A stretch of 64,000 bases of DNA from Escherichia coli (GCF_003991155.1 NZ_CP031294.1); one strand, 5' to 3'. Counted from the first letter of the stretch, positions 18,621-19,649 are shown. A program made the numbers and translations. The notes: generated from the sequence alone by a model not told the origin.

Positions 18621-19031
18621 TTAAGGGTTAGTGAGAGCTTGAAATGCGGCCGCGTAGGTAGCGATATCGACCATAATTTTTGGATCTTTCGCGTACTGAT
18701 GTGCGTTGTTAGGGAAGATTGCCAATAGGCTATACACATCTTGGAAATGTGCATGTTGACTGTAAACGAGTGCACGGTCGCTTGTGCAATTGAATCTGCT
18801 GCGGCTGCTGGTTCGTTCTTGCTTCGTGAACAAGAGATGAACGTGATAAACGCGGGAGGACACGATAGCACCAGGAGCCGTATACGGGCCATCTTTGCCG
18901 AATATGGCTGGGTACATGCCTTGTTTAAACGACTTGAAATCGTTGAGTAACGTAATCTCTAAGTCAGGCTTTATATCGAAGGTCGGCTTTAAAAATTGGG
19001 CGTAACTATCACTGTTCCATGTGATCTTCAT
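18621..19031 (-). CDS. YafO-like toxin domain protein (putative type II toxin)
   Basis: 136 aa; segments FGKDGPY, VYHVHL and LLAIFPNNAHQYAKDPKI resemble my recollection of E. coli YafO; unverified. Confidence 0.4.
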   Translation of the reverse strand: MKITWNSDSYAQFLKPTFDIKPDLEITLLNDFKSFKQGMYPAIFGKDGPYTAPGAIVSSRVYHVHLLFTKQERTSSRSRFNCTSDRALVYSQHAHFQDVYSLLAIFPNNAHQYAKDPKIMVDIATYAAAFQALTNP

Positions 19032-19040
19032 CGTTCAACC

Positions 19041-19649
19041 TCAATGGAATGAGAAGTTGGCGAAGACGTCCTCATCAATGAGGCCAGTCTGCGATTCGAT
19101 GACGTTTACGTCGTTAAAACACTGATTTAAAATCAATAGCAGATCAGAGATAGCTAAACGATACTCAGTTACAGAATCGCTCAAGCGTTTCAAATATGGA
19201 TGAGGTTGCTCAGAGTCGCGAATCAACTTGTTAACGAATCCCTCCAAACCACGAATGGTCAGGTCAACGTTCTTCAGTTCTTCGTAACGACTTTCACCGA
19301 AGTTGCTGCGAATCTTTTCCGCTTTCCATCCAGAGATGGCATGGGCTAAGCGAACGTGTTTCGCCGTCAATTCTGCGAGCTTGCTTTCAATCTTTGCCAG
19401 CTGTGCCGCATCGCGGTTCTCTTGAACAGGAATAGCCGCAGTGCTCACATAGGTTTGTGTTTTGAATCCTGTGAATTTCGCAGAGGGCTTCATCGTGCCA
19501 CGGAAGCGTCGATATCCACGCGGTTCAATAAAATCACGCCCAGATTTAGCTGTAGGCTTTGCGTTTGAAAAGCGTGAAGCGTTAGAGGTCACAGTAGCAA
19601 GGGCATTGCTAATGACACTCATATCTTCTAGGCAATTTTCTAAACGCAT
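19041..19649 (-). CDS. Hypothetical protein, translationally coupled upstream partner of the YafO-like gene
   Basis: 202 aa, ends 10 nt before the toxin-like ORF; no antitoxin fold recognised. Confidence 0.4.
   Translation of the reverse strand: MRLENCLEDMSVISNALATVTSNASRFSNAKPTAKSGRDFIEPRGYRRFRGTMKPSAKFTGFKTQTYVSTAAIPVQENRDAAQLAKIESKLAELTAKHVRLAHAISGWKAEKIRSNFGESRYEELKNVDLTIRGLEGFVNKLIRDSEQPHPYLKRLSDSVTEYRLAISDLLLILNQCFNDVNVIESQTGLIDEDVFANFSFH

Follow-up and report, generated by a model that had tools for sequence, protein, structure and literature searches.

The question raised by this locus concerns two adjacent genes in a 64,000-nt stretch of Escherichia coli DNA (GCF_003991155.1, NZ_CP031294.1; the window, from whose first letter all positions are counted). 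One encodes a YafO-like toxin and the other, immediately upstream, a 202-aa protein that a preliminary description of the region took for either a new antitoxin type or the partner in some other system into which a toxin domain had been recruited. Synteny, coupling geometry, co-divergence, replacement of the two genes as a cassette and a conserved tail together favour the new antitoxin type, recruitment of the toxin into, for example, a defence system with a sensor partner being the less favoured alternative. The pair is probably a bicistronic toxin-antitoxin (TA) module of type II, carried by an SSU5/pHCM2-like phage-plasmid, with an antitoxin from the uncharacterised helical family phrog_13546. 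The window sequence is identical, at the same coordinates, to the E. coli plasmid NZ_OW849379.1, a non-mobilizable IncFIB replicon of 110.7 kb and of the SSU5/pHCM2-like phage-plasmid type, whose gene content includes dnaE, a ligase, nrdAB, a primase and tRNA genes. The features of the pair are as follows.

19041–19649, minus strand: gene of the 202-aa partner, the proposed antitoxin, from the open reading frame (ORF) call.
18621–19031, minus strand: gene of the 136-aa YafO-family toxin, predicted to be an mRNA endonuclease that depends on the ribosome, from the ORF call and family homology.
19032–19043, minus strand: gene junction, in which the partner stop codon TGA overlaps a GAGG Shine-Dalgarno sequence (TGAGGTTGAACGATG), with a 9-nt spacer (19032–19040) to the toxin ATG.

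Both ORFs, which run in the same direction on the minus strand with the partner first and the toxin second, lie where the preliminary description had placed them; the short gap it reported between them is present but measures 9 nt rather than 10. Judged from its sequence, the junction has the geometry of translational coupling. On the 5’ side the pair is preceded by a glutaredoxin gene (grxA) and then a terminator-like hairpin, while a 13-7-13 inverted repeat and a tyrosine-integrase gene lie on the 3’ side.

The resemblance of the 136-aa protein to YafO, proposed in the preliminary description, is borne out by database searches. The Pfam family YafO_toxin (PF13957) matches with an E-value of 5.9e-22 over model positions 2–100 of 101, phrog_1651 matches with an E-value of 5.3e-41, and BLASTP aligns the protein to YafO of E. 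coli K-12 with 36% identity over 110 aa (E 7e-14). The NCBIfam model NF007377 was also matched (E 7.7e-16, positions 21–129 of 132), but the score of 58.7 bits does not reach the curated equivalog cutoff of 153, and on sequence grounds the protein is assigned to the YafO family without being an equivalog of E. coli YafO. The motifs DF..YK, FG[KR]D..Y, HxHL, T[SN]D and AH (A/P-H across clades) are common to the toxin, all YafO clades and E. coli YafO, as is an aligned YSLLA motif with the general form Y/W-x-L-[LI]-A, and the motifs kept across the clades are of a putatively catalytic type. The toxin is basic, with an isoelectric point (pI) of 9.0, and possesses approximately 16 extra N-terminal residues (WNxxxYxxF) that are absent from E. 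coli YafO. The ratio of nonsynonymous to synonymous substitution rates (dN/dS) for its gene is 0.08–0.28. Given that RefSeq already names the protein ‘type II toxin-antitoxin system YafO family toxin’, the toxin call is not new. A sequence search of the PDB for YafO structures found none. The yafNO locus of E. coli is an experimentally validated TA locus in which YafO cleaves only translated mRNA, YafN autoregulates yafNO and induction is Lon-dependent (PMC2814082). By homology, the 136-aa protein should cause growth arrest by cleaving mRNAs under translation.

The partner belongs to a family of its own. It is matched along its full length by phrog_13546, an uncharacterised phage protein family (E 8.5e-125, positions 1–201 of 201), which also matches the distant family members L016 and L018. 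Nothing was found in Pfam at E < 0.001, including PF02604, the YafN family; NCBIfam gave no meaningful match, and PDB sequences gave none. The partner could not be aligned to YafN by BLASTP, and comparison of its family profile with a 19-sequence YafN profile using hhalign returned a probability of 0.4%; the partner was rejected as a YafN homologue on these two results. Neither Panacea/DUF4065 nor any other known antitoxin domain was detected in the Pfam and NCBIfam scans. The preliminary description was right that the partner is unlike the expected antitoxin of about 90 aa, and no recognisable antitoxin features are present, but its yardstick, RelB/DinJ, was misplaced, as the partner of E. 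coli YafO is YafN, a 97-aa protein of the Phd/YefM type. The family is small, with 11 clusters recovered by a profile search of 1.84 billion representative proteins, 27 clusters by a word-based search (all with at least 58% identity over the aligned part) and four loci in a scan of one genome per species. Four regions are distinguished within the partner.

Residues ~3–28: N-terminal helix, conserved, from the family alignment and AlphaFold models.
Residues 29–79: linker, variable, basic (pI 11) and disordered, from the alignment, AlphaFold2 (AF2) models and charge.
Residues 80–178: three-helix bundle with an invariant RGLEG motif, from the alignment and AF2 models.
Residues 179–202: C-terminal tail, acidic/aromatic (ESQTGLIDEDVFANFSFH, pI 4.1), from the alignment, AF2 models and charge.

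The partner gene has an overall dN/dS of 0.19–0.21, made up of values of 0–0.12 in the N-terminal helix, bundle and tail and 0.4 in the linker. Both genes are thus under purifying selection and are not chance ORFs. Antitoxins of type II typically measure 70–100 aa, and the greater length of the partner raises the possibility that the 202-aa ORF is mis-annotated, the true antitoxin being a shorter product of an internal start or the long ORF a fusion or artefact. In keeping with such a mis-annotation, conservation is poor in the middle third, where disorder is predicted, and the N-terminal part is missing from the most distant family member and from some gene calls. This explanation is nonetheless highly improbable. 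Conservation over Met1 and the first 28 residues ranks among the highest in the protein (dN/dS 0–0.09, with 0.19–0.22 in the two most distant comparisons), which argues against a shorter internal product; a good Shine-Dalgarno sequence precedes Met1, no internal Met is conserved, and even the linker remains under mild purifying selection. A 142-aa partner call on the Salmonella contig L037 lies on DNA identical to that of a 204-aa call and is a gene-calling difference only.

Other apparent variants of the partner were set aside. A 121-aa version in E. coli plasmid CP059990.1 (2501–3118), considered as a natural knockout, differs from otherwise 100% identical DNA by three small indels; these look like long-read assembly errors rather than true mutations, being typical of that error class, and the shortened version is uninformative. 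Two Klebsiella partner fragments (P0025 and P0027) sit at a contig end and were not taken as broken genes. A signal peptide at the N-terminus, suggested by the hydrophobic N-termini of related partners, was rejected given an acidic n-region and a polar ‘h-region’.

The association of the two genes was followed across genomes. Every partner homologue with downstream DNA is succeeded by a YafO-family gene whose start lies 5–14 nt past the partner stop, in 15 distinct full loci and down to 25% identity to the 202-aa protein (on the short contig L017 the downstream ORF is present for its first 35 codons only). In 14 family loci the stop-to-start spacer is 7–14 nt with a GG-rich Shine-Dalgarno sequence inside it, in 14 of 14. 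The loci include phage-plasmids of E. coli, Citrobacter, Enterobacter, Kluyvera, Klebsiella and Salmonella, chromosomal loci of Erwinia, Pluralibacter and Brenneria, contigs from Samsonia and Pectobacterium, and other plasmids; metagenomic partner homologues with 25–41% identity are likewise linked to a YafO-family gene. Pairwise identities of partner and toxin co-vary (r = 0.96). A tblastn search of PLSDB recovered the partner at no less than 60% identity in 315 plasmids; for the toxin the count was 312 and the spread of hosts the same. In the records listed the partner is labelled ‘hypothetical protein’. In comprising co-directional neighbours with a short spacer, a toxin homologue and a pairing kept across contexts, the pair has the layout of a generic type II TA system.

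This linkage bears on the idea that the partner is an unrelated co-operonic phage-plasmid protein, for example chaperone-like or regulatory, with the toxin otherwise controlled by host YafN, a small RNA or low expression, or that the YafO-like protein is not toxic at all. Such an arrangement would be in keeping with a partner that has neither homology to known antitoxins nor a DNA-binding domain, with a toxin under the NCBIfam equivalog cutoff, and with nearest structural neighbours that are generic helical bundles, the FlgN export chaperone among them. It is improbable, however, in view of the strict adjacency in every locus across unrelated contexts with coupling-type spacing, the co-divergence, and the near 1:1 plasmid counts. 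The hosts are also diverse (Klebsiella, Enterobacter and Brenneria, with Pseudomonas for related pairs), and with no more than 36% identity between the toxin and E. coli YafO, cross-neutralisation by host YafN is unlikely. No other antitoxin or YafN is annotated near the pair or in the remainder of the plasmid outside the window.

Two further observations show the genes behaving as a unit. Apart from a remnant of the phage-plasmid’s grxA 3’ end and terminator, the copies from Enterobacter roggenkampii and Pluralibacter (L005 and L010) consist of the pair alone, a pattern that fits an addictive module outliving its element and one that also speaks against an unrelated partner. In Salmonella (L036), the cassette shows 72–73% nucleotide identity while the 70 nt upstream of it are 97% identical, from which it follows that both genes were exchanged together.

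Under the TA-module reading, one transcript would give both proteins, and translational coupling would tie the toxin to the antitoxin. The antitoxin would bind the toxin directly and block it, the acidic/aromatic tail acting as the main neutralising segment and the three-helix bundle as a docking or oligomerisation platform, while the long disordered basic linker would render the antitoxin protease-sensitive. Once synthesis stops, either through loss of the plasmid-prophage or through transcription shut-off by an infecting phage, free toxin would build up and translation would halt. This would stabilise the low-copy plasmid prophage, keep out competing phages, or do both. The low copy number of the phage-plasmid and the chromosomal remnants are in line with plasmid-prophage addiction; the related morons of integrated prophages and the variability of the slot that holds the pair would suit phage exclusion or abortive infection, and the two roles are compatible.

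It is also possible, if somewhat unlikely, that the pair serves mainly in abortive infection or superinfection exclusion, the partner being both sensor and inhibitor and freeing the nuclease on encountering a phage product or host shut-off. The toxin-neutralisation core would be common to this and the addiction module, with the difference lying in the trigger and in the role, lysogen defence over addiction. Related pairs are morons of integrated temperate phages (HK639, PhiR40_1 and YMC11/02/R656), for which no plasmid addiction is needed. The slot between grxA and the integrase gene (window 18450–19745) is a variable region among SSU5-like phage-plasmids, with an AbiH gene nearby in one Klebsiella relative, and divergent alleles within conserved flanks would fit diversifying selection of the kind acting on defence loci. 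A complete type I restriction-modification system (hsdM, hsdS and hsdR; record coordinates 82844–88882) is also encoded on this phage-plasmid, which thus has further defence cargo, and the partner is larger than simple neutralisation requires. Against this, neither protein significantly matches PADLOC-DB v2 defence models, where the partner gave no match and the toxin only a marginal one (PDC-M55B, E 0.015), and no sensor-type domain was detected in the partner. The pair-only chromosomal remnants are equally well explained by addiction, and the literature search turned up no phage-challenge data.

The tail is the segment of the proposed antitoxin most likely to contact the toxin, judging from its conservation. 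In the most divergent family member, tail identity is 54%, compared with 7–21% in the other partner regions. When the partner was modelled alone with AF2, the tail had a predicted local distance difference test score (pLDDT) of ~40. A fused model of the partner, a glycine-serine (GS) linker and the toxin was built from a 14-row paired alignment, which differs from the alignment of the partner-alone run. In the fused model, residues 181–190 reached a pLDDT of 79, with 85–90 for the bundle and 88 for the N-terminal helix, and the predicted template modelling score (pTM) was 0.66 as against 0.49. The fused model is weakly consistent with the tail folding on the toxin.

Upstream of the partner gene, three candidate expression signals were located.

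19721–19736, minus strand: intrinsic-terminator-like hairpin (GGCTCCTTTTGGGGCC) with a T-rich tail after the glutaredoxin gene, from a terminator scan.
19683–19711, minus strand: candidate promoter read from the sequence, with –35 TTGTAG (19706–19711), a 17-nt spacer and –10 TACACT (19683–19688).
19654–19659, minus strand: Shine-Dalgarno sequence AAGAGG, 4 nt before the partner ATG, kept in all clade-1 loci.

The hairpin is conserved in related phage-plasmids and would separate the pair from upstream transcription. The candidate promoter falls under the threshold of a consensus scan. The 70 nt preceding the partner start are 97% identical in the Citrobacter as well as the Salmonella relatives, even where the cassette itself is 72–73% identical, and the core TTGTCG…TACACT/TAAACT is retained in the Erwinia and Enterobacter copies. 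TTGTAG-17-TACACT is a weak, putative promoter of the two-gene operon. A bulged 7-bp repeat over the –35 and –10 elements in relatives, noticed by eye, was considered as an operator and rejected as not significant.

Several points weigh against the TA-module reading. Gene structure, toxin family, strict co-occurrence, co-divergence, purifying selection and domain layout are observed; from sequence and comparison we infer the toxicity, neutralisation, direct binding, role of the tail, lability and autoregulation that it entails. The toxin lies far under the NCBIfam equivalog cutoff, and biochemically it might not behave as E. coli YafO does. Pfam, NCBIfam and profile comparison revealed no DNA-binding fold (ribbon-helix-helix, helix-turn-helix, AbrB or Phd) in the partner, and an inverted-repeat search of the promoter region at seed 6 gave no convincing operator repeat, so that the autoregulation typical of type II systems is unsupported, although the 70 nt before the partner start are better conserved than the cassette and the linker is basic. 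The gain in pLDDT at the tail could reflect the more diverse alignment of the fused run and not a predicted interface. A likeness of the tail segment DEDVFANFS to the YafN C-terminal consensus SDxD[LF]xEFTE was dismissed as too short and not significant.

The size of the partner, described at first as atypical, proves to be normal once YafO genes of other mobile elements are considered. Klebsiella pneumoniae pSW25HRG encodes a 178-aa protein followed by a 152-aa toxin, Enterobacter hormaechei pC44_001 a 175-aa protein followed by one of 138 aa, Pseudomonas phage YMC11/02/R656 (gp093-gp092) 180 aa then 146 aa, and E. coli phage PhiR40_1 (PV340560.1) a 179-aa partner (222–761) then 144 aa. In the lambdoid phage HK639, gp17-gp18 (190 and 145 aa) form a moron between tail genes with its own terminator. 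In each of these mobile-element pairs a helical protein of 175–190 aa lies 8 nt upstream of, or overlaps, a YafO-family gene, and all toxins with such partners bear the N-terminal extension of approximately 16 residues. YafO toxins of plasmids and temperate phages are thus normally paired with helical partners of 160–205 aa, the short YafN being what is found on the E. coli chromosome; among mobile elements the large partner is the rule and YafN the exception.

The partners of HK639, pSW25HRG, PhiR40_1 and YMC11/02/R656 are mutually related (BLASTP E 7e-44 to 2e-6) and correspond to phrog_8416 and phrog_22162. Compared with phrog_13546, they give hhalign probabilities of 45–55% (E ~1e-4) over bundle helices 2–3, and they resemble it in an LRGLEG motif, a C-terminal F/I-H ending and a weak phrog_13546 cross-match. 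Their tails, in contrast, follow SxIxMxGLxxLAxxGT and not the ESQTxxIDxxxFxNFSFH of the phrog_13546 partner, and the pC44_001 partner has no significant similarity to the phrog_13546 family. Given the marginal sequence similarity and the unlike tails, a remote relationship of phrog_8416 and phrog_22162 to phrog_13546 is likely, not proven. A broader proposal, speculative and rather unlikely, is that phrog_13546, phrog_8416 and phrog_22162 make up one superfamily of 160–205-aa helical antitoxins serving essentially all mobile-element YafO toxins of Enterobacterales and Pseudomonas, in which the bundle and linker would be more than an inhibitor, sensing a phage cue to release the nuclease. The many orphan YafO genes of phage-plasmids and prophages would then represent a widespread two-component system for abortive infection and addiction, in which the antitoxin has a new fold and plugs the toxin with its C-terminal tail.

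The phd-doc module of phage-plasmid P1 combines a labile antitoxin with a translation-targeting toxin. As a plasmid-prophage type II addiction module it is a functional analogue of the pair described here, but its toxin and antitoxin families are both unrelated. P1 phd/doc is mentioned in a review of phage-plasmids, which refers to the TA systems of the SSU5 shell genome only generically (PMC7969092). The yafN-yafO genes of the E. coli K-12 dinB operon share with the pair a homologous toxin, the antitoxin-then-toxin order, a very short spacer and the ribosome-dependent mRNA cleavage that is expected of the 136-aa toxin (PMC2814082). They differ in that YafN is a 97-aa protein of the Phd/YefM fold, whereas the phrog_13546 partner has 202 residues and is all-helical with a long disordered linker, and in lying in an SOS operon and not on a mobile element. 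The concept of partner swapping is shared with the mix-and-match systems Panacea/PanA and NetFlax, which feature large or multi-domain antitoxins and in which one toxin family is reported to pair with unrelated antitoxin families, often in phage defence (PMC8832971, PMC10440598). By term counts, YafO is absent from the main text of the NetFlax paper.

As far as is known, yafM of E. coli K-12 is an unrelated gene. In the record of PhiR40_1 the 179-aa partner is labelled ‘YafM antitoxin’, and a Pectobacterium genome paper lists a ‘YafO/YafM’ system; the name seems to stem from an annotation pipeline, and no experimental basis for it was found. The literature search yielded no report linking YafO with SSU5, pHCM2 or phage-plasmids, nor one characterising the 202-aa partner. 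In genome surveys such YafO genes appear as orphan toxins or as incomplete TA systems (PMC8151138, PMC6192338, PMC10449497), repeatedly so because the partner is unannotated, and in an E. coli-wide survey that recovered 13 clusters of YafO partners only 8% were known antitoxins (PMC10790755). The favoured description is that a toxin of a known family, already annotated as such, is paired with an antitoxin of an undescribed one. The advance is incremental, as type II TA systems are already well known to swap partners. Phage-plasmids of the SSU5/pHCM2-like type occur commonly in clinical Klebsiella, E. coli, Enterobacter, Citrobacter and Salmonella, and approximately 315 PLSDB plasmids carry the pair. 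If the partner family were recognised, annotation would be put right in hundreds of replicons and prophages, and these elements would gain a testable maintenance or exclusion determinant. Given that YafO toxins are without a solved structure, a new antitoxin type would be a useful addition and an entry point to YafO neutralisation.

The surroundings of the pair contain further features. In phage Cyrano, an unrelated 184-aa ORF on the opposite strand takes the place of the pair between grxA and the integrase gene. The inverted repeat at 18546–18578 has 13-nt arms (AATGATTCCATAC and GTATGGAATCATT) and a 7-nt spacer, and lies approximately 100 nt upstream of the integrase start (minus strand, 18447). 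Its arms are identical in the Kluyvera, Citrobacter, Enterobacter and Salmonella relatives and in Cyrano, which does not carry the TA pair, while the spacer varies (CTACTAT, CTAGTAA or CTATTAA). The repeat is a candidate for a tyrosine recombinase binding or recombination site, a regulatory hairpin or a terminator of the TA operon. A 302-aa ORF annotated as hypothetical (20164–21072, plus strand) adjoins the variable slot and gave no match in Pfam and PADLOC scans; related elements have other genes in this region, such as PhoH, a Gp49-family gene or Sequestin, and the AbiH gene of the Klebsiella relative lies near it. Host-like metG and apbC genes are also present on the phage-plasmid. Four tRNA genes (Ser-TGA, Thr-TGT, Tyr-GTA and Asn-GTT) are clustered at 21251–21808 on the minus strand, and the tRNA-Ser segment is ~90–96% identical to tRNA genes of phages P7 and D6 and of rV5-like phages.

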